From the IMG/VR virus record IMGVR_UViG_2675903313_000009: a DNA stretch of 64,000 bases; one strand, 5' to 3'. The notes under the pieces were generated by a model. The model worked only from the letters and a program-made list of their open reading frames with translations. It was not told the origin of the DNA and did no database searches. Of the stretch, positions 10,701 through 63,199 are shown piece by piece. How positions within the stretch are numbered: position 1 is the stretch's first letter; each line of letters starts with the position of its first letter. The stretch is from a virus (taxonomy: Duplodnaviria > Heunggongvirae > Uroviricota > Caudoviricetes). Position numbers and translations under genes: made by a program.

Positions 10701-12019
10701 AAAAGTTGATCGCACTTAAGCATAAGCTGGACGAAATGAAAGCTATGGGAACCAATGCAAAAAAAGAGGCATTGGCCAACATGGATGACTTCGAGCAAAG
10801 CATGGTTTCATTGATGCTCAACCCTTTCATCCGTTTTGGGGTAAAGAAATACAAAGTGGCAGAGCCGCTTAGTGAGTCCATCCCAAGTGACGAAAAAGCC
10901 ATTGATGTACTGAATAAGCTGGCCTCTCGCGAGCTAACGGGGAACGCAGCAATAGCTGCTGTTGAGTCTATCGTGGCGTCAATGTGCGCCGATGGGCAGG
11001 ACGTGTTCCGTCGTTTCCTCTTAAAAGACCCGAAAGCGGGTGTTGGGATTAGCCTATGCAACAAGGTTTTTGAAAATCCCATTCCGAAATTCGAGGTGCA
11101 GCTGGCGTCACCGTATAAAGAAAAAGGCGACAAATACCCCTTCAAGCCAAATCCTAAAGCAAAATGGCCGATGATTGGCAGCCTTAAGCTCGATGGTTTG
11201 CGAGTAATTTGCGAGGTTATTGTTGACGAAGAAGAGGTTAACTTCCTTTCTCGTACTGGTAATCCAATCACGTCTCTCGATCACCTAAAGCCAGCCATGC
11301 TCGAATTAGGCAAACTTTCAGGCCACAAACACATCTTCTTCGATGGTGAAGGCACAGCCGGTTCATTTAACCAGTCCGTATCTGCATTGCGCAAAAAGAA
11401 CGTGCAGGCAATTGGCGCTATTTATCATATTTTCGACTTCTTCCTACCGGAATGGCGAGCACAGGCTAAATCCAAAGAGTATGCAAAGACAGGTATGAAG
11501 CTGAAAGAGCGCCTGGCTATGCTGGTGGCGTTGTTCAAAAACGATCGCAGTGAAGGCTACACACAAGACATTCACCTGCATCCGTTCTATATCATCCATA
11601 GCCACGAAGACTTCATCGAACGCTTCATGAAACGCCTGGACGATAACGAAGAAGGGGAGATGGGCAAAGATCCGAACTCTGTTTACGAGTTTAAACGTAC
11701 CCGCAGCTGGTGGAAGTTAAAAGACGAAGATTCAGAAGATGGTGAAATTATCGACTTTGAGCCGGGCGATCCGGACTCTGGTTTTGCCAACACGCTTGGA
11801 AAAATTGTTATTCGCCTTGAAAACGGTGTGATTGTTCGTGCGAGCGGCATTAAGCATAAATATCTGGACGAGATCTGGAACAACAAAGAGAAGTACCGTG
11901 GTCGTATTGTCGAGGTTCATTGTCACGAGAAAACGCCGGATGGCAGCTTACGCCACCCACGACTGAAATGGCCGCGTTGCTTACGCGATACAGAAGATCG
12001 AATCGGAGATAAAGAATGA
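10697..12019 (+). CDS. ATP-dependent DNA ligase
   Basis: nucleotidyltransferase motif I KLDGLR, motif III-like FFDGEG, C-terminal OB-like region. Confidence 0.7.
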   Translation: MKKLIALKHKLDEMKAMGTNAKKEALANMDDFEQSMVSLMLNPFIRFGVKKYKVAEPLSESIPSDEKAIDVLNKLASRELTGNAAIAAVESIVASMCADGQDVFRRFLLKDPKAGVGISLCNKVFENPIPKFEVQLASPYKEKGDKYPFKPNPKAKWPMIGSLKLDGLRVICEVIVDEEEVNFLSRTGNPITSLDHLKPAMLELGKLSGHKHIFFDGEGTAGSFNQSVSALRKKNVQAIGAIYHIFDFFLPEWRAQAKSKEYAKTGMKLKERLAMLVALFKNDRSEGYTQDIHLHPFYIIHSHEDFIERFMKRLDDNEEGEMGKDPNSVYEFKRTRSWWKLKDEDSEDGEIIDFEPGDPDSGFANTLGKIVIRLENGVIVRASGIKHKYLDEIWNNKEKYRGRIVEVHCHEKTPDGSLRHPRLKWPRCLRDTEDRIGDKE

Positions 12020-32237: not shown

Positions 32238-32770
32238 ACCGCTGACAGCATACACAATCAACTACCGCTGATAGCATATCGAGAGTCTATATCACCGCTC
32301 ACAGCATACTTTACTCGATTTTTTACCGCTGGCAGCATACTTAAGACATTGCATGAATAATGTGTACCGGTATGGGTATAACCAGAACAAAATTACCGCT
32401 GGCAGCATACGAAGGTCTGACATATACCATTAATTACCGCTGATAGCATATCCAAACAAAAATTCCTCAATAAAACACCGCTGACAGCATACGTTCTATC
32501 AGGGAGCAGCAGGCAATAAATGCCTTTCACTACAAGCAATCAGCGCAATAGCAATAGAATGTTAGTGAGCGCAAACCTATATGGAATGCACTCTTCGAGG
32601 TTAGTAACCACTGGGGAGGTATGACAGAGCATTGAGTGGTGATAGATGATTTACCGCTCACAGCATACGTTTATCTCACTATACCGCTGGTAGCATATCT
32701 TTAACCGTTCACAGCATACTTTTCAGAAAAATAGCCGCTGATAGCATACATTTCACCGCTGACAGCATAT
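32238..32770 (+). repeat. iteron array downstream of repA (incA-like copy-control locus), 12 copies
   Basis: 16-bp direct repeats ACCGCT(G/C)NYAGCATAY at 32238, 32264, 32294, 32325, 32395, 32436, 32477, 32653, 32683, 32704, 32734, 32755. Confidence 0.8.
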
Positions 32771-33864
32771 CAAAGCAGTTTGAGACTATTGGAAAGGATC
32801 TCAATCATCTTGATATTTTCAGGCGTCAAATTCTGCGAAAGTTCGGTTATCTTGTTGATAATGTTCTGTTTGGCATCAATTTCCCCAGCTTTCTCATCTG
32901 GTTTTTTGGGTTCGATGTCTTCAGGTTTTGGCGGTGCGACTTTGAGTTTTGGATTGCGGCTGTGAATCTGGATATAGATCGACCGCCCTCGCTTAATCTC
33001 GCTGTATTCGAGATAGCCCAAATCTTGGAGAGCTTTTAAGCCGTTACGTATAGTCTGATTCTGCGAGCTGACATTCCTGCTACTCAAATTGAGTCGCGCA
33101 CGTAATCGAGCAAGCGATACCGGCGCAGGCTTGGTTGGAAGACTTTCGATGAAGGTGTACAGAGCCTGTGCTGTTTCTTTGCGTGGTAGCTTATTGATAA
33201 CCTTTAACTGCAAAAGAACCTTATGGTCAAAGCGATATAGTTCGGCCAGCTTCGGTTCTGCATAGAACACCACCGTATCTTTCTGCTCGTTGTAGTCCAC
33301 GCTATTGATGAGGTGCACCATCAGAAGCGAGATCTTGTTAGAGCCGTCGACATTCTTTTCTTCATACGTTCTCTGAAAAGACAGAGTTGTACGCATGATC
33401 TTCAAAAGACTGTTTGTAAGCCGGTCGCGGAGTGTTTTGCGGATCTGTGACGATGGATAGCCACAAAACTTCGCAAATTTCGTGATGCTTAACTCGACAC
33501 GACCGTTAGGTTCGCCGTATTCTGCCAGCGAACGCACAACGCCCACCCACGTTTTGAAATCATGATCCATGTCGAGACGAGGACCGGTTATCTTGATATC
33601 GGAATAACCTTCAGAACGGGCTACTTCGAGCTGAACAAGCTCCTTTGAAGCATCGATCTCATTTGGCTTATTACGCTTGCTGTATTTTGTCCCCTTGAGC
33701 GTGGGCACGAACAACCCCAGCCGCATCAACGCAATTGGTTGGACTGTATTGTTGCTATTAGGGACAAGTTCCCCTGTGTACAATTCAAGGGAACCTTCTT
33801 CAAAGTTGTCGAGATTATCTTCTACTTCTTTGTTATTTTTACCTTTTTTATTTTTTGTGGACAT
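32770..33864 (-). CDS. repA: iteron-binding replication initiator (RepA/Rep3-like)
   Basis: 364 aa basic protein flanked on both sides by iterons; ATG at 33864 preceded by aaagg; ORF open to 33984. Confidence 0.7.
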   Translation of the reverse strand: MSTKNKKGKNNKEVEDNLDNFEEGSLELYTGELVPNSNNTVQPIALMRLGLFVPTLKGTKYSKRNKPNEIDASKELVQLEVARSEGYSDIKITGPRLDMDHDFKTWVGVVRSLAEYGEPNGRVELSITKFAKFCGYPSSQIRKTLRDRLTNSLLKIMRTTLSFQRTYEEKNVDGSNKISLLMVHLINSVDYNEQKDTVVFYAEPKLAELYRFDHKVLLQLKVINKLPRKETAQALYTFIESLPTKPAPVSLARLRARLNLSSRNVSSQNQTIRNGLKALQDLGYLEYSEIKRGRSIYIQIHSRNPKLKVAPPKPEDIEPKKPDEKAGEIDAKQNIINKITELSQNLTPENIKMIEILSNSLKLL

Positions 33865-33884
33865 GTGGACACCTTTGTCATTCA

Positions 33885-33986
33885 ACCGCTGACAGCATAC
33901 TTGATTTGCCGCTGGCAGCATACCAAAAACAGTTGGCAGCATACGGCGAACCGTTGACAGACTATCAATTACCGCTGGTAGCATAC
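33885..33986. repeat. origin-proximal iterons (incC-like), 3 intact plus 2 degenerate
   Basis: accgctgacagcatac, gccgctggcagcatac, accgctggtagcatac plus partial copies, immediately upstream of repA. Confidence 0.75.
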
Positions 33987-34025: not shown

Positions 34026-34099
34026 CGATCGGGGATCTTATTTGATCTATACAAGGATCTATCTATGGATCTCTTTATTAGGATCTATCCTGTGGATAT
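34026..34099. promoter_or_regulatory. GATC cluster plus DnaA-box-like site (plasmid origin core)
   Basis: six GATC sites within 60 bp (repeated GGATCT units) followed by TGTGGATAT. Confidence 0.6.
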
Positions 34100-49702: not shown

Positions 49703-50296
49703 ATGATTGCAGCCGAAAAAATCAAACAGCGAAAGCGCGACAACTCTCTTCGTGACCTCTGGAGAACACCTGACTGGCTGTTTTCTGCCATTCAACGTTA
49801 TCTTGGAGTGACATTTGATGTTGACGTTGCCTGCAACAAGGACAATGCAAAGCTGCCTAATTTCATAGGCGTTGAGCGTGATGCTTTGAAATCTGAATGG
49901 GGACAGCCAGGTACAATTGCCTTCCTCAATCCACCCTACTCCAAAATCTACCCCTGGATTGATGCGGCTATACGTGAGCAGGCTCGCGGAGTTACAACAG
50001 TGATGCTAATTCCTCAATCCCTAGATACAAAGTGGTATGAGCGTGCAACAGAGTGTGCGAATGAGACGATTATTCTGTCTGGTGGCCGCGTAGCGTTTGT
50101 CGAACCTGACGTAAATCTGGGTCAGGTAGAAGTAAACATCAACCCAGGTGGCAGTATGCTCGTTGTTTTTCGAGGATTCTGTCAGGACGCTGGGCACTCT
50201 ATAAGCAAGATCCCTTTGGACGTCATGAAAAGTCTGGGAGGGTATGATCATGCGAATGTGATCAGGAAAAAAAGACCATCAAAGAAGGCTGCTTAG
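49703..50296 (+). CDS. phage-type DNA N6-adenine methyltransferase (Dam-like)
   Basis: catalytic motif FLNPPYS; about 197 aa. Confidence 0.75.
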   Translation: MIAAEKIKQRKRDNSLRDLWRTPDWLFSAIQRYLGVTFDVDVACNKDNAKLPNFIGVERDALKSEWGQPGTIAFLNPPYSKIYPWIDAAIREQARGVTTVMLIPQSLDTKWYERATECANETIILSGGRVAFVEPDVNLGQVEVNINPGGSMLVVFRGFCQDAGHSISKIPLDVMKSLGGYDHANVIRKKRPSKKAA

Positions 50297-50719: not shown

Positions 50720-51290
50720 GTACAAACTATTCATAAAGTGAATTGTAAGTGCTAAGATCTGATAGTTTCCAGTCGTAGACTGGAGACTCGACCTGATGGG
50801 TGGGGGTAAGCGTCACTGGCGTCAGGTTTAAAAAAGCTCACTACCAGCGTAGAACTGGTGCCGTTTAGGTGTCGGGGAAGGGGGAACCAAAGTGAGCAGA
50901 GACAAGGGTCACTTTATGATTGTCGAGTCTGGGGTGTTTCGAGAGGTTGAATCCAGTACTCCCCTTCATAAAGTGTGGGAAGATCTCGGTTCTGGGGTGC
51001 TGTCATCCATAACTTCCCAAGTCTAAGCTGGCAGTAGACTTAGACCATAACTTTTCAGGTTATGAAACGACCAGGTTGGTGAGAGATTTTTATACTCACC
51101 TCCCTGGGAGAGTATTACCTGAAAAGACAACCTCTCACTTCGTTCGAGGTGAACTTCACTCACTTCGTTCGTTCAGTTCAGGTTTATAAAAACCTGTTCT
51201 GGGAAGTAATTTGTTTATTTTAATAATTATTAACACGCACGCGTGTGCGCACGCGCGAGGAAAAATCGGCGCGGCGCTTGATTCAGGAGT
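50720..51290 (+). other. 570-bp structured noncoding region (candidate ncRNA or origin/packaging element)
   Basis: no credible ORF; G-runs, repeated tctggggtg, several local hairpins, tandem tcacttcgttcg repeat, 25-nt perfect alternating purine-pyrimidine tract at 51233-51257. Confidence 0.4.
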
Positions 51291-51294
51291 TTAT

Positions 51295-51885
51295 ATGACG
51301 ACGAAGACACCAGCCCGATCGCAAGCAAAAACTCGCAAAAAAGACAAAAACAAAAATTCTCCCCGCACCAATCCCACAACGCCTGTCGTAGAGTTCAATC
51401 CCCAGCTTAAAACCGTGAAAATCTTTAGTGATGGCTCTTGCCTTAAAAATCCGGGTGGCCCGGGCGGTTACGGTATCGTTCTCCAGTATCGTGGTGAGGA
51501 ACGCGAGTTCTCAGATGGTTTTCATAGCACCACCAATAACCGCATGGAGATGATGGGGGCACTTATCGGGCTGGAGCGTTTGAAATATCCATGCAACGTT
51601 ATTTTGCACTCTGATAGCCAGTATCTGAAAAACGGCATGACACAGTGGATGAAATGGTGGAAACGCAATGGATGGATGACTTCTGACAAAAAACCGGTAA
51701 AGAATGTTGATCTGTGGAAGCGTCTGGATGAGGCCGCAAGTCGACATAATGTTCGCTGGAAGTGGGTTAAAGGTCACGCCGGGCATCGTGAAAATGAAAT
51801 ATGTGATCGACTCGCGAAGATCGCAGCTTTTTCAGCAGCAGATATGCCTCACAAGAAAGATATTGGTTTTGTTTATAACAAATAG
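51295..51885 (+). CDS. rnhA: ribonuclease HI with basic N-terminal extension
   Basis: [38 protein letters not shown] parallel E. coli RNase HI; ORF open from 51211. Confidence 0.9.
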
Positions 51886-52819: not shown

Positions 52820-53245
52820 ATGTTAGGTTTCTTCAAAAAGAAAACTCGTAAAGCTGTTATCGAAGTCAAAAAAATGGAGAACCGTGATGCGGTTGAGGCC
52901 ACCGTGTGGGGCGCGTACATGATCTCCTATGCCGACGGCACATGTGACGCAAAAGAAATTGCCATTCTTGAGAAGACAATTGCAGCTCTGCCTGCGTTTT
53001 CTCCGTTTGCTGGTGAAATTGCCCAAATGAGCGCCAATATCCGTGCTCGTTACGAAGCGTCCCCTCGTTCTGCTAATGCACAGGCTATTCGTGAGCTGTC
53101 TGATATTGCGGGTACTCCAGAGGCGGTCGATGTTCTGTGTCTGTGCCTTGATATTGCCGATCAGGACGGCATTGGTGAACAAGAAGAGCAGGCACTGAAA
53201 AAGATCGCCCAGGCGCTTCAGTTGTCACTGGATGCTTATCTCTAA
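52820..53245 (+). CDS. TerB-like domain protein
   Basis: two ADG...E repeats (ISYADGTCDAKEIAILEK and DIADQDGIGEQEEQALKKIAQAL) typical of TerB-type domains; 141 aa. Confidence 0.5.
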   Translation: MLGFFKKKTRKAVIEVKKMENRDAVEATVWGAYMISYADGTCDAKEIAILEKTIAALPAFSPFAGEIAQMSANIRARYEASPRSANAQAIRELSDIAGTPEAVDVLCLCLDIADQDGIGEQEEQALKKIAQALQLSLDAYL

Positions 53246-53542: not shown

Positions 53543-54109
53543 ATGTGCGAGAAATGCAAAGCAATAGCTGATGAACAAAACGCCCTATTCGAAGAAATGG
53601 ATGCTAATGAACTTGTCAAAATGTTAGGCATTGTTCGGGGAACAGAAGACGTTTCTATATTTGAGAGACTGTTTACAGTACTTAATTTTAATTCCACCTT
53701 TGAAGAGCCAACTCAGGTTGTAGCTTTGGCACACCATTTCGGTGTTCATTATCTTGCCGAAAAAGAGCGCGCTAATAAGTTGCAGGCGACTTTGGATATG
53801 GTGAGCGAGACTCAAGGAACCCATGACGGTAACAATAGTGAGACGATTATTGCCAGCAAAGATCGTGAAATTGCCGGACTTAAGTCTTCTCTAACGATGT
53901 TGATGTCTGCAATCAATCTTATGTCTTCTAAAGCGGGATATAAAATGCCATCACTAAACAGTGACGATCCAATGGCCGTTCGCCAGCTTTTGGGAGCAAT
54001 GGCCGACCAGCTTGATGATACGAAAAGTCGGCTTGAAGACATGATGCGGGAGCTTACGCATCGCCACGACTTGAATAAGCAACCGCACAAAACGCAATAC
54101 GCACTCTAA
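53543..54109 (+). CDS. hypothetical protein
   Basis: 188 aa; start context aaggaaaacacATG. Confidence 0.5.
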   Translation: MCEKCKAIADEQNALFEEMDANELVKMLGIVRGTEDVSIFERLFTVLNFNSTFEEPTQVVALAHHFGVHYLAEKERANKLQATLDMVSETQGTHDGNNSETIIASKDREIAGLKSSLTMLMSAINLMSSKAGYKMPSLNSDDPMAVRQLLGAMADQLDDTKSRLEDMMRELTHRHDLNKQPHKTQYAL

Positions 54110-54250
54110 TACTGCACCAGTCGACAGGGGGCGAAAGCCCCCATTTTTACGCCTTAAATCTGCTGTAACGCCTATGAATGCAGCTTTTATGCCTTTTCAA
54201 GTTTGCGATAATTACACCAATCAGAAAACAAATTATTTAATGGTGTAATT

Positions 54251-55936
54251 ATGAATACAGCCCTTTCCATCATCGACGATGCCAGCTCAAACACGGCTAT
54301 CGACTATCGTCAGGAAATGAATGTCATCCACGAAATCGTGGCCGAGTGCGAGAAAGAGATCGCCTTCATGTATCAGGTACACGACTTCGTTTATGGCGAC
54401 GAACGCCACAACATGATTAATCGCCTGCTGAGACTAAACCATCGACCAGATGAAGATCGCTCGCGTTTAAATCGAGGTTGGTTGGATAAAGTCGATCTGG
54501 AATGGGTGAAACAGAATATTTGGGCCGAGTACTGGAGGAAGGTCACGGACATGACTAACGTTTTGCTGATCATGCCAGCTTCCCGTCGAGATGAGTGGCG
54601 CGAGCAGTTTATAGAGGGCAAACAGGAAGTCATCAAAACTGACAGAACCGGCTACCAGATGAAGGTTAAAGAGTTCGTTGGTGTACCGGAGTTCAAAGCA
54701 GAAACGGTCATACCCACGATGCTTAATTTGCTGAATGACAGGCACAAATATCTCTCTGAGCGCGTGTATGGCTTGTTTAAGGCGCTGAGTCCTGCGCACA
54801 AGACAAATAAGACAAACGGTTTCAGCGAGCGTCTGATAATCGCTGACTGCATTTCTGATTTCTGGCGGGACAGCGTTAGCGTGAACTATCGCAAAGAGGA
54901 CTACATCGACGATCTGCGTGTCTTGCTTCATTTCTTCGCGCACAAAGAATTTATTACCATCAACCGCACTGCTGAGGTGCTATCAGCTGCGTATCGGGCA
55001 AACGACTGCCAGACCGGTGACTGGATGAACGTCGATGGAAATCTGATGCGCGTGAAGATGTTCAAGAACGGCAACGTTCACTTTGAAATACATCCTGACG
55101 TGGCCTGGAAGTTGAATGAGGTGCTGGCTTACAGTATGCCTGCTGCAATCCCCGCGCCATGCCGAACTGCGCCAAAAACACGGGCACCAAAGCAGTTCGG
55201 GTTAATCCAGAAGACGATCTCCGTGCCGGTTCGCACTGCGCTTCGTGACGGGCGATTGAGCAAAGACAAAGGCGTATGGTACTTCTCTGATTCAGCTCTC
55301 CAGAAGTCGCAGGTGGAAGAGCTTGAGCGCACACTGAGCTTCATTGGCGGCGTGCAGGAGAAAAAGCACTGGCAGTTCCCGTATGACATCGGCCATACGC
55401 TAAATACGATTGTGGCTACCGGTTTAATACCGGATACAAAATCACACCAGTTCTACCCTACCCCACGCTTGATTGCTGAGTACGTTGCAAGAGCCACTGA
55501 ATTGAAGCCTGGTGAGAAGCTGTTGGAGCCTCAAGCCGGACGTGGGGATCTTCTGGCCTATATAAACGCCGATCTGGAAGATGTTACCTGCATAGAAATC
55601 GCACCTCTCTTCGCTGATATCCTGCGTGGAAAAGGGTATACGAACACGATTTGCTGCGACTTCATAAAGTGGTCTGAGGACAACGCAGGTTATCAGTTCG
55701 ACAAAATCGTTATGAACCCGCCGTACTCGCTTGGTCGTCATAGAGAGCACACGCTGGCTGCGCTGGGGCATCTGAAAGTCGGCGGGCGTCTTGTAGCAGT
55801 ATTGCCGGGCACTGCGCCAATACTGGACTGGATGACGATGGATAATTACGTTTATGCCAGAGGGAAGTCGTTTACCAACGAGTTTGAAGACACAGGGATC
55901 ACAGTCAGCGTATACGTTTTCAAACGCGTTAAATGA
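54251..55936 (+). CDS. DNA N6-adenine methyltransferase fused to a large N-terminal domain of unknown function
   Basis: C-terminal region with FYPTPRLIAEYV, FxGxG-like LEPQAGRGDLL and catalytic NPPYS; about 400 aa of unassigned N-terminal sequence. Confidence 0.6.
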   Translation: MNTALSIIDDASSNTAIDYRQEMNVIHEIVAECEKEIAFMYQVHDFVYGDERHNMINRLLRLNHRPDEDRSRLNRGWLDKVDLEWVKQNIWAEYWRKVTDMTNVLLIMPASRRDEWREQFIEGKQEVIKTDRTGYQMKVKEFVGVPEFKAETVIPTMLNLLNDRHKYLSERVYGLFKALSPAHKTNKTNGFSERLIIADCISDFWRDSVSVNYRKEDYIDDLRVLLHFFAHKEFITINRTAEVLSAAYRANDCQTGDWMNVDGNLMRVKMFKNGNVHFEIHPDVAWKLNEVLAYSMPAAIPAPCRTAPKTRAPKQFGLIQKTISVPVRTALRDGRLSKDKGVWYFSDSALQKSQVEELERTLSFIGGVQEKKHWQFPYDIGHTLNTIVATGLIPDTKSHQFYPTPRLIAEYVARATELKPGEKLLEPQAGRGDLLAYINADLEDVTCIEIAPLFADILRGKGYTNTICCDFIKWSEDNAGYQFDKIVMNPPYSLGRHREHTLAALGHLKVGGRLVAVLPGTAPILDWMTMDNYVYARGKSFTNEFEDTGITVSVYVFKRVK

Positions 55937-57721: not shown

Positions 57722-58185
57722 GCAAGATTGACTATCAGGCACTGCGTGAAAAGGCAGAGAAAGCAACGTGTGGTGAGTGGTCGCTCGAATATGGAGAGAG
57801 CCGATTAGATGGTGATGATGCGCTAATTCATCGTGAAGTTGCTGGATATATTCCTATTTGCAGAATTGAAGGAGCGCATCCTGAAAGCGGTTTCGATGAA
57901 GATTTCCAGATGGAACAGCAGGCCAATGCTGAATTCATCGCCGCAGCCAGTCCAGCTACCGTGCTGGCACTACTGGATGAGATCAACGCATTAGAGGAAA
58001 CGCGTATCAACGATGTTTGCCGTATTGCGGAACTAACAAAACAACTGGAGTTGGCAAAATCAAAACTCAACGAGCAGCGTGAGTATTACGAGGGCGTTAT
58101 CTCGGATGGAAGTAAGCGCATAGCCGCTCTTCTTCGCAAGGACAATCTTGCCAGCGCCACGAACATTGAAGGTGAAAGAAAATGA
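57718..58185 (+). CDS. hypothetical coiled-coil protein (possibly Ea22-like; unverified)
   Basis: N-terminus [21 protein letters not shown] recalls prophage ead/Ea22-like proteins from memory; needs a search. Confidence 0.4.
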
Positions 58186-58505
58186 CCACATCGCACTCTG
58201 CTATTACCCAAGAAAAAGCCTTCAACATACTCGAACGACTAGAGACGCTCGCTACGGAGGAGGATATATCCCCGGAGAAACTGGTTGAGTTCAGCCGTGT
58301 GATATTGCGTCGCAAGAACGATATGGAGCGGCTGACATCTGGCGCTCCATCCTTATCAGTCAGGCGAACACTTTGTTGCAGCTTCTGCAACAAATCCCAG
58401 TACGCCGTCAAAAAGTTAATTGCTGGGGACGCCGTTTTCATCTGCGACGAGTGTGTGGATGTGTGCAACAGAATTATCCGGGGAGAGAAAGAGGGATCAG
58501 CATGA
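58182..58505 (+). CDS. small protein with ClpX-type C4 zinc-finger domain
   Basis: [34 protein letters not shown] closely parallels the ClpX N-terminal zinc-binding domain ([34 protein letters not shown]). Confidence 0.75.
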
Positions 58506-62098: not shown

Positions 62099-63199
62099 TC
62101 ACACTGCGCGGAATGCGATTTCGCCAGGTATTACTTCACCTTGCCAATACATTTGGGCAGCAACGCGATCTGCGAGGTCACGATAAATAGCCGTAAATTC
62201 GCTATCTGGACGACTAATAACGGTTGGTGTTCCGTTATCCAGATCTTCACGAAGTGAGATATGAAGTGGCATTTGGCCTAACAACTGCGTGTTGTATTTC
62301 TCGGCCAGTTTCTCTGCGCCACCGGTGCCGAAAATTGGCTCGTGATGACCGCAGTTACTGCAAATATGCACACTCATGTTTTCGACGATACCCAGTACCG
62401 GCACTTCGACTTTTTCGAACATCACAATGCCTTTCTTCGCATCGATCAGCGCGATGTCTTGCGGCGTAGTTACCACAACAGCACCAGTTACAGGAATGTT
62501 CTGCGCCAGCGTCAACTGAATATCACCAGTGCCCGGCGGCATATCGAGAACAAGATAGTCCAGATCAGGCCATAGAGTTTCCTGCAACATCTGCATCAGC
62601 GCCTTGCTGGCCATCGGTCCACGCCACACCATTGCATTGTCGTCGGTGACCAGATAACCAATAGAGTTGGTTGCCAGGCCATGAGACATGATAGGTGCCA
62701 TGTGAGTACCGTCAGGTGAGGTTGGACGTTGGTTTTCCGCGCCCAGCATGGTTGGAATTGATGGACCATAGATATCGGCATCCAAAATACCAACTTTCGC
62801 ACCTTCAGCAGCCAACGCCAGTGCCAGGTTTACCGCCGTGGAGGATTTACCCACGCCGCCCTTGCCTGAGCTGACGGCGATAATGTTCTTAACGCCATTA
62901 ATGCCTGGTTGGTTTTTGACACGCTTAAGCGTGGCAATGTTGTACGACAGCTTCCAGTCAATAGCCTTTGCGCCAGTGATACGGAGCAGATCACCACTAC
63001 ATTGCTCTTTCAGGTCTTCAAAAGGCTTATTCCACACGAAAGGCATGATTAGTTCGACATGCAGTGTGTCATCCATCAACGCAACATGGTGTAACGCTTT
63101 AAGCGTAGTCAGGTTGTGTTTCAGGGTTGGGTGCTGAAAATTAGCCAGCGTACCGGCTACCATTGCTCTCAGGGCATCCGGCGATTTGGACTCGCTCAT
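62099..63199 (-). CDS. apbC: Fe-S cluster carrier ATPase ApbC/Mrp
   Basis: 366 aa; deviant Walker A SSGKGGVGKSS and CSNCGHHEP motif; near-identical to enterobacterial Mrp as recalled. Confidence 0.95.
   Translation of the reverse strand: MSESKSPDALRAMVAGTLANFQHPTLKHNLTTLKALHHVALMDDTLHVELIMPFVWNKPFEDLKEQCSGDLLRITGAKAIDWKLSYNIATLKRVKNQPGINGVKNIIAVSSGKGGVGKSSTAVNLALALAAEGAKVGILDADIYGPSIPTMLGAENQRPTSPDGTHMAPIMSHGLATNSIGYLVTDDNAMVWRGPMASKALMQMLQETLWPDLDYLVLDMPPGTGDIQLTLAQNIPVTGAVVVTTPQDIALIDAKKGIVMFEKVEVPVLGIVENMSVHICSNCGHHEPIFGTGGAEKLAEKYNTQLLGQMPLHISLREDLDNGTPTVISRPDSEFTAIYRDLADRVAAQMYWQGEVIPGEIAFRAV

Follow-up and report, generated by a model that had tools for sequence, protein, structure and literature searches.

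A predicted two-module DUF4942-methyltransferase protein carried by SSU5-like phage-plasmids

Introduction

What does a phage-plasmid gain from a second adenine methyltransferase, and what is the large N-terminal part good for to which the small catalytic core of this enzyme is joined? Both questions are raised by an open reading frame (ORF) at positions 54251 to 55936 of a 64,000-nucleotide (nt) stretch of viral DNA (IMG/VR virus record IMGVR_UViG_2675903313_000009, Caudoviricetes), which was analyzed at its full length and is called the window in the following. The window is an Escherichia coli member of the SSU5/pHCM2 phage-plasmid group. A first-pass annotation of its sequence had reported two N6-adenine methyltransferases with NPPY motifs on this element, and had described the one of 561 amino acids (aa) as a catalytic core behind an N-terminal domain without known function.

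In the present analysis, the 561-aa protein was compared with its relatives in phages, plasmids and prophages. Our main new result is that it is a fusion of two modules, A and B, each of which also exists alone. With moderate confidence, we regard the protein as a solitary DNA N6-methyladenine (m6A) methyltransferase that marks or protects the element, module A being an accessory targeting, regulatory or DNA-binding part. This reading builds on the architecture of the protein, the integrity and conservation of its motifs, its modularity, its distribution over mobile elements and the absence of a recognizable nuclease partner.

Two modules that also occur apart

The coding sequence starts with an ATG, the first start codon past the upstream stop, and encodes 561 aa plus stop. 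Homologues share the starting methionine, and the ORF has exactly the extent claimed in the first-pass annotation. It is divided as follows.

54251-55936, + strand: whole ORF, 561 aa, homologue of SSU5_095 and member of PHROG 6263
54251-54502, + strand: acidic helical arm of module A, aa 1-84, isoelectric point (pI) 4.9, 21% mean pairwise identity
54503-55186, + strand: conserved basic core of module A, aa 85-312, pI 8.9
54668-55135, + strand: match to Pfam DUF4942 (PF13708), aa 140-295, score of 74 bits (cut-off 25)
55208-55435, + strand: start of module B, helix ISVPVRTAL and small basic alpha/beta domain, aa 320-395
55436-55933, + strand: minimal gamma-type amino-methyltransferase Rossmann core, aa 396-561

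Module A covers aa 1 to ~320 and includes DUF4942, module B covers aa ~322 to 561 with the alpha/beta domain and the methyltransferase core, and the boundary between them lies at ~aa 320-345. When the C-terminal 166 aa served as query, stand-alone proteins with a length of 220-290 aa were obtained. Their alignment to the 561-aa protein begins at residue ~327-356 and ends at ~555, so that they include the helix and the alpha/beta domain in front of the core; the conserved L, IGG, F and Y positions are kept in them. Uncharacterised prophage methyltransferases of this type (for example P0314, P0327 and P0352) correspond end-to-end to aa ~327-555 with 22-38% identity and possess all catalytic motifs, but they lack module A, and no DUF4942 gene is found nearby. 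Two stand-alone short methyltransferases are located in prophage early regions after a cI-like repressor. The earlier placement of the core in the last 150 residues was roughly right (aa ~396-561), but the autonomous unit is larger and comprises ~240 aa.

Module A was also found alone. Two proteins that consist of module A only (P0270 and P0272) share 79% mutual identity, have the same end point just past the 'LPFSVL' helix, and reside in different conjugative-plasmid contexts, with RadC, PemK and IncFII RepA genes in one case and DndB and DotM/TrwB genes in the other. Other short forms are internal deletions that keep the C-terminal tail of the core (P0276, P0284), or stem from very short contigs (1-4 kb). 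The underlying module-A profile search in a word-indexed database returned only proteins shorter than 400 aa and is blind to an arrangement with the methyltransferase first and DUF4942 second. Because module A exists alone and the methyltransferase unit exists without module A, their separate occurrence favours an accessory or independent role of module A over that of an obligatory recognition domain. Target recognition or a second activity, as had been suggested for the N-terminal part, remains the right pair of options, with obligatory recognition now being less favoured. The modular dissection also offers a direct experimental handle, since full-length protein, module B and module A can be set against each other.

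Catalytic core and module B

The core carries the following motifs.

55445-55465, + strand: motif X, HQFYPTP, aa 399-405
55520-55552, + strand: motif I, LLEPQAGRGDL, aa 424-434
55583-55600, + strand: motif II, acidic residue E449
55652-55672, + strand: motif III, D470-F471
55715-55726, + strand: motif IV, NPPY, aa 489-492
55772-55807, + strand: motif LKVGGRLVAVLP, aa 508-519
within 55877-55897, + strand: invariant F545

For the analysis of conservation, 156 family representatives were aligned, each from a different 50%-identity cluster. E426, G430, N489, P491, H500 and F545 are conserved in 100% of these sequences, and P490, Q400, D470 and E449 in 97-99%. The presence of an NPPY methyltransferase in the 561-aa protein, as claimed in the first pass, is thereby borne out by an intact core. 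The motif order assigns this core to the gamma type, because the S-adenosylmethionine (AdoMet) motifs (X, I-III) stand before NPPY. Since the ~70 aa between NPPY and the stop codon are taken up by the remaining parts of the Rossmann core, its strands and helices, a C-terminal target-recognition domain is not present. Within aa 400-520, Pfam gave sub-threshold matches only, namely to N6_Mtase, RrnaAD and MTS.

In front of the core, the small alpha/beta domain is common to the 561-aa protein and the stand-alone methyltransferases of 220-290 aa. Conserved positions within aa 320-395 are G366, G367, F376, Y378, G391 and P394; aa 313-395 are variable overall, with 28% mean pairwise identity and a pI of 9.2. 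The domain of aa 320-395 is a candidate DNA-contact or specificity element.

As with other NPPY enzymes, the substrate could be other than DNA, namely RNA (m6A in rRNA or tRNA) or a glutamine residue of a protein, and RNA methyltransferases are among the top structural neighbours. We judge this very improbable: M.TaqI is the best solved relative of module B and was ranked far above KsgA/Erm in the profile search, the QFYPTP form of motif X and the LEPxAGxG form of motif I typify gamma-class DNA enzymes, and in phage early regions the gene is found in clusters with those of DNA methyltransferases.

The DUF4942 module

Three short segments of module A contain a large part of its invariant polar residues.

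54788-54808, + strand: SPAHKTN motif with S180, H183, T185 and N186
54908-54919, + strand: invariant D221 and R223
55079-55099, + strand: HFEIHPD motif with H277

In total, W95, W116, F148, L179, S180, H183, T185, N186, D221, R223, W258, D262, H277 and N289 are invariant, the polar ones among them being S180, H183, T185, N186, D221, R223, D262, H277 and N289. The linker of aa 296-330 has a pI of 11.7. Residues 1-18 are disordered in the structure model, while a model of aa 19-395 alone is confident (predicted local distance difference test, pLDDT, 85); the HKTN loop is the single low-confidence stretch of this N-only model (pLDDT <50).

The N-terminal domain had been called unknown in the first-pass annotation. 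This holds for its function, which Pfam does not assign, but not for the domain itself, which is recognized as DUF4942 (aa 140-295). All 24 of 24 diverse module-A sequences matched DUF4942, and a Pfam scan of these sequences at E<=10 gave no other family. A module-A profile found no match among the PDB sequences (hmmsearch), and Foldseek of the N-terminal model against BFVD returned two uncharacterised phage proteins of ~250-270 aa and nothing else. A PD-(D/E)xK-like reading of D262...E279-x-H281 was considered and dropped, as no fold match was obtained. Module A, conserved and without a structural relative, may hold a function beyond target recognition.

Proposed function and its main rival

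For a solitary methyltransferase that marks or protects the element, the following course is proposed. Module B would bind AdoMet via motifs X and I-III and would flip and methylate an adenine at NPPY/F545. The catalytic core itself lacks a C-terminal recognition domain, and for this reason module A, composed of the helical arm and the basic conserved DUF4942 core, would most likely contribute additional nucleic-acid binding, targeting or regulation; the basic nature of the module A core, of the linker and of the 313-395 domain counts in favour of this. An extended -10 promoter of its own would drive the gene, which is flanked by a terminator on one side and a series of small phage accessory genes on the other, and host restriction would act less readily on the methylated DNA of the element upon infection or transfer. 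Escape from restriction by way of solitary methyltransferases is one of the principal strategies of phages and plasmids. That the substrate is DNA and the chemistry that of N6-adenine, what module A does and how the element benefits are points that we infer from the observed features of the family.

Besides the structural neighbours mentioned above, several points weigh against this proposal. The stand-alone short methyltransferases show that the enzyme can be built without module A. Module A in turn persists without any methyltransferase, in proteins of 327-369 aa that keep every invariant residue. Mean pairwise identity amounts to 46% in the DUF4942 core (aa 146-312) versus 47% in the catalytic core, and 41 of 167 positions in the former versus 26 of 130 in the latter are at least 85% conserved; unlike module A, ordinary target-recognition domains vary. 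Moreover, our literature search gave no methylation data for any family member.

Module A could instead be the primary unit, that is, an autonomous establishment or anti-defence module, with the methyltransferase as a captured add-on that it directs or complements. It would then bind a DNA state or a host protein, or exert a second activity from S180/H183/T185/N186, D221/R223, D262, H277/E279/H281 and N289. We consider this possible but doubtful. Stand-alone proteins in two different conjugative-plasmid contexts (P0270, P0272) retain all invariant residues, the conservation of module A is at least that of the catalytic core, and neither the solved structures nor Pfam contain a relative of its fold. 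The low pLDDT of the invariant HKTN loop is often seen for mobile substrate-binding loops, and annotation tables list DUF4942-only genes in E. coli/Shigella islands beside RadC/YeeU-YeeV modules. On the other hand, neither a catalytic fold nor a known motif was recognized in module A, several of its short forms are clear deletion derivatives or originate from 1-4 kb contigs, and only one persistent N-only lineage is documented, the great majority of the family being fused. In its strongest version, which we rate as unlikely, the DUF4942 module would be an autonomous function of mobile elements with an unseen fold, either an enzyme or a binder of a DNA state or host factor, which serves for establishment in a new host and which captured a small phage methyltransferase. 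Methylation would thereby be directed to a particular target, entering or replicating DNA, or be coupled to a second activity. If true, IncHI1/HI2 resistance plasmids and SSU5-like phage-plasmids would carry an anti-defence or establishment protein of a new class.

Distribution and genomic contexts

The ORF at 54251-55936 is a conserved accessory gene of SSU5-like phage-plasmids. Its DNA is 99.9% identical to genes on ~110-kb non-mobilizable E. coli plasmids, which are annotated as 'DUF4942 domain-containing protein', and shows 98-99% identity to Escherichia phages Cyrano and CMS-2020a. The homologue SSU5_095 of Salmonella phage SSU5, annotated as 'DNA methyltransferase', has 90% DNA identity, and phrog_6263 ('DNA methyltransferase') matches residues 1-561 of the protein on profile positions 1-548 of 548 (E 1e-299). 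The gene order is that of Cyrano and SSU5: exonuclease, hypothetical protein, adenine methyltransferase, RNase H, TciA/TerB-like protein, the 561-aa gene, and Ead/Ea22-like genes.

At the DNA level, 562 plasmid records match the gene, and in public databases the sequence itself is found over a thousand times, the P0001 cluster standing for 1,384 member sequences. At E<1e-30, 365 cluster representatives were obtained, almost all with a length of 500-600 aa (~510-600). By tblastn, the fused form was detected in 2,535 plasmid records, of which 1,360 belong to conjugative plasmids. It is also present in 41 phage records (Aeromonas, Pseudomonas, Marinomonas, Vibrio and enterobacteria). The family is therefore widespread, its diverged clusters numbering in the hundreds and its plasmid records over 2,500, and rides on clinically important elements, namely IncHI1/HI2 multiresistance plasmids and the SSU5/pHCM2/pKPHS1 phage-plasmids of E. 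coli, Salmonella and Klebsiella. Public names of its members are 'DUF4942 domain-containing protein', 'class I SAM-dependent methyltransferase' and 'DNA modification methylase'.

On IncHI1/IncHI2 plasmids, the fused gene lies two genes from a Dam-family methyltransferase. In Variovorax and in an Enterobacterales chromosome, it is part of lambdoid prophage early regions and adjoins PF01555 and PF00145 methyltransferases, and in Pseudomonas phage MR13 the gene next after it encodes another methylase. A second orphan methyltransferase was present within 5 kb in 7 of 7 contexts inspected. In the window, no nuclease domain was detected in the flanking ORFs, unknown small ORFs being not fully excludable, and no partner gene is conserved across the SSU5-like, IncHI, prophage and Pseudomonas-phage loci, where the neighbours differ. 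The protein thus has no visible adjoining cognate endonuclease and no conserved partner, as expected for a solitary methyltransferase, and the first-pass suggestion of self-protection or marking fits these contexts of phage early regions and plasmids with an orphan methyltransferase nearby.

On IncHI-type plasmids (IncHI1, NC_016825.1, L003, 6327-10608; IncHI2, pS38, L004, 3561-7845; L009, 5655-9638), the full-length homologue has 31% identity and belongs to a conserved block that sits near replication genes. The order of this block is a Dam-family methyltransferase on the opposite strand, a 'DNA-binding' or hypothetical protein of ~360-385 aa, the DUF4942-methyltransferase, and an ORF of ~55-58 aa.

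A loss of the gene was seen in Klebsiella pneumoniae plasmid pAI1235P_P2 (NZ_CP079122.1, L018, 5001-10180), in which it is cut to a 71-aa N-terminal remnant annotated as 'restriction endonuclease subunit M'. The remnant abuts an oppositely oriented type I restriction-modification cassette (hsdR, hsdS, hsdM), and the upstream phage-type Dam is kept. Because the cassette replaces the gene in this one Klebsiella lineage, the gene is dispensable and its site is a cargo locus for defence or anti-defence functions.

It could also be asked whether the protein serves as modification subunit in a type IIG-like, MADS-like or other system of restriction or defence, with a neighbour that went unrecognized as its partner. 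The PADLOC mad2 model matches aa 394-523 (E 1e-15), and some deposited homologues are annotated as 'RE endonuclease' or 'restriction methylase'. The mad2 match covers the generic core only (profile positions 265-401 of 492), the flanking ORFs are Ead/Ea22-type phage accessory genes that contain no nuclease, helicase or ATPase domain, and each context has entirely different neighbours with none conserved, which makes such a partner the least probable of the explanations considered here. Membership in a MADS or other defence system was rejected in view of the partial mad2 match, the neighbouring ORFs being small phage accessory genes and not the other MADS genes.

Putative promoter region of the 561-aa gene

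Upstream of the gene, three elements were noted.

54127-54142, + strand: terminator-like GC hairpin GGGGGCGAAAGCCCCC with T-run, conserved in SSU5 and Enterobacter relatives
54204-54212, + strand: extended -10 promoter-like element TGCGATAAT, from sequence reading
54208-54219 and 54241-54252: perfect 12-nt inverted repeat ATAATTACACCA / TGGTGTAATTAT with 21 nt between the arms

The hairpin would close the upstream gene (53543-54109) and thereby make the methyltransferase gene its own transcription unit. TGn and the -10 hexamer are kept in 7 of 7 relatives compared; no good -35 was found at this putative promoter. The inverted repeat overlaps the -10 hexamer, the GGTG Shine-Dalgarno sequence and the first two bases of the ATG. 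Its gapped pattern occurs once in the window and in 0 of 100 shuffles, and the half-site is unrepeated elsewhere in the window except for one copy with 1 mismatch at 11740. As RNA, the repeat would form a hairpin of -12.4 kcal/mol (z -3.1), and a compensatory A>G/T>C change in phage Cyrano keeps 12/12 pairing. In SSU5, Enterobacter and Klebsiella relatives the repeat is degenerate, while TGn/-10, spacer and GGTG are conserved there.

The repeat could be an operator, or a hairpin in read-through RNA that hides the ribosome site. The operator reading seems at least as likely, because a transcript from the adjacent -10 would miss most of the left arm. Judged by its sequence, the dyad appears to be a lineage-specific regulatory feature, since among the lineages of the element that of E. 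coli alone has it in perfect form. Of the 'O1 dyad' in the first-pass annotation, the perfect inverted repeat from -10 to start codon was found, as a single local repeat; a recurring 'O1' operator could not be confirmed, as the half-site is unrepeated in the window and the dyad is unconserved beyond the E. coli lineage.

Second methyltransferase and GATC cluster at the probable origin

The second, Dam-like NPPY enzyme reported for the element was located upstream of the 561-aa gene.

49703-50296, + strand: phage-type N6-adenine methyltransferase, 197 aa, PF05869 (Dam) and TIGR01712

It scores above the cut-offs of both families, with 131.6 bits for PF05869 (cut-off 28.1; E 2.9e-38) and 113.3 bits for TIGR01712 (cut-off 97.05; E 8e-33). 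Its NPPY is encoded at nt 49928-49939, and the gene is syntenic with the 'adenine methyltransferase' gene of Cyrano and with SSU5_088. Both enzymes of the element are NPPY amino-methyltransferases encoded on the same strand in the same accessory region, but the single-domain 197-aa enzyme is unrelated in architecture to the 561-aa protein. The PF05869/TIGR01712 family holds both GATC-specific and non-specific members, which gives no more than a lead on the specificity of the 197-aa enzyme.

GATC is the target of Dam. Six GATC sites with 10-14 bp spacing lie within 34027-34085, five of them within GGATCT/TGATCT repeats. The cluster is placed between the gene for a Rep3-family (PF01051) initiator (404 aa, 32770-33984, minus strand) and the next ORF, directly upstream of the initiator, and is probably a plasmid-prophage origin with a Dam-site cluster. 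The GATC cluster meant by the GATC-rich origin of the first-pass annotation was thereby recovered. In the whole window GATC is not enriched (267 observed versus 245 expected).

From this cluster, and from the dyad over the promoter and start codon of the gene, it might be supposed that the 561-aa enzyme writes an epigenetic signal for the element, at the origin or at its own promoter, and does not protect from restriction. Orphan methyltransferases often regulate, as Dam and CcrM do. We regard this as improbable. The obvious writer of GATC is the host or the PF05869 enzyme of the element, and the proposed link of the 561-aa enzyme to the origin was not upheld, as nothing ties this gamma-type enzyme to GATC. 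Furthermore, homologues occur in unrelated replicons with different origins (IncHI, lambdoid prophages, Pseudomonas/Aeromonas phages), and some Klebsiella phage-plasmids continue to replicate although they have lost the gene.

Other genes of the element

Four further ORFs were noted in the window. An RNase H (PF00075, aa 68-206) is encoded at 51211-51885 (+); its longest ORF starts with TTG and has a basic N-terminal extension of ~65 residues, and, given the 594 bp of the Cyrano homologue, translation probably begins at a more internal codon. The accessory array that holds both methyltransferases also encodes, at 52820-53245 (+), a TerB-domain protein (PF05099) whose homologue in Cyrano is the P1 TciA-like gene. 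At 58182-58505 (+), a 107-aa ORF was found whose C-terminal 36 residues form a ClpX-type C4 zinc finger (PF06689, E 1.2e-15) without an AAA+ domain; it could be a mimic of, or a competitor for, the substrate- and adaptor-binding domain of ClpX. Finally, a 366-aa ParA/MinD-type ATPase is encoded at 62099-63199 (-). Among Pfam families it matches best that of the NUBPL iron-transfer P-loop NTPases (E 2e-102), the Cyrano homologue is annotated as MinD, and it is an unusual partition-type ATPase for a plasmid prophage.

Comparison with known systems

The 561-aa protein belongs directly to DUF4942 (PF13708) and PHROG 6263 and is the homologue of SSU5_095; these are catalogue entries only, with no function, specificity or structure attached; a literature search for the family (DUF4942, SSU5/pHCM2 methyltransferase) gave annotation tables or irrelevant papers only. 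The family is thus catalogued already, and an orphan methyltransferase of a mobile element is a well-known kind of enzyme and not a new kind of system.

Among the closest known systems are M.TaqI and other gamma-class N6-adenine DNA methyltransferases (M.BseCI, CamA, HsdM cores). The protein aligns to M.TaqI motif by motif, but classical gamma enzymes have a C-terminal recognition domain, whereas the 561-aa protein is without one.

With regard to function, M.EcoGIX and M.BceJIII are to be compared, which are single-strand-specific SAY methyltransferases of plasmid leading regions and belong to the beta family with DPPY (PMC7736820). Kinship with these enzymes and with M.EcoGII, which are promiscuous enzymes of plasmids and prophages, was rejected, as they are beta-class DPPY enzymes (PMC7736820, PMC7544214); M.EcoGIX/M.BceJIII have the reverse motif order, while motif I stands before NPPY in the 561-aa protein. 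M.EcoGIX and M.BceJIII are nevertheless a plausible functional analogue of the methyltransferase proposed here, being orphan m6A enzymes by which a mobile element is shielded from restriction on entry.

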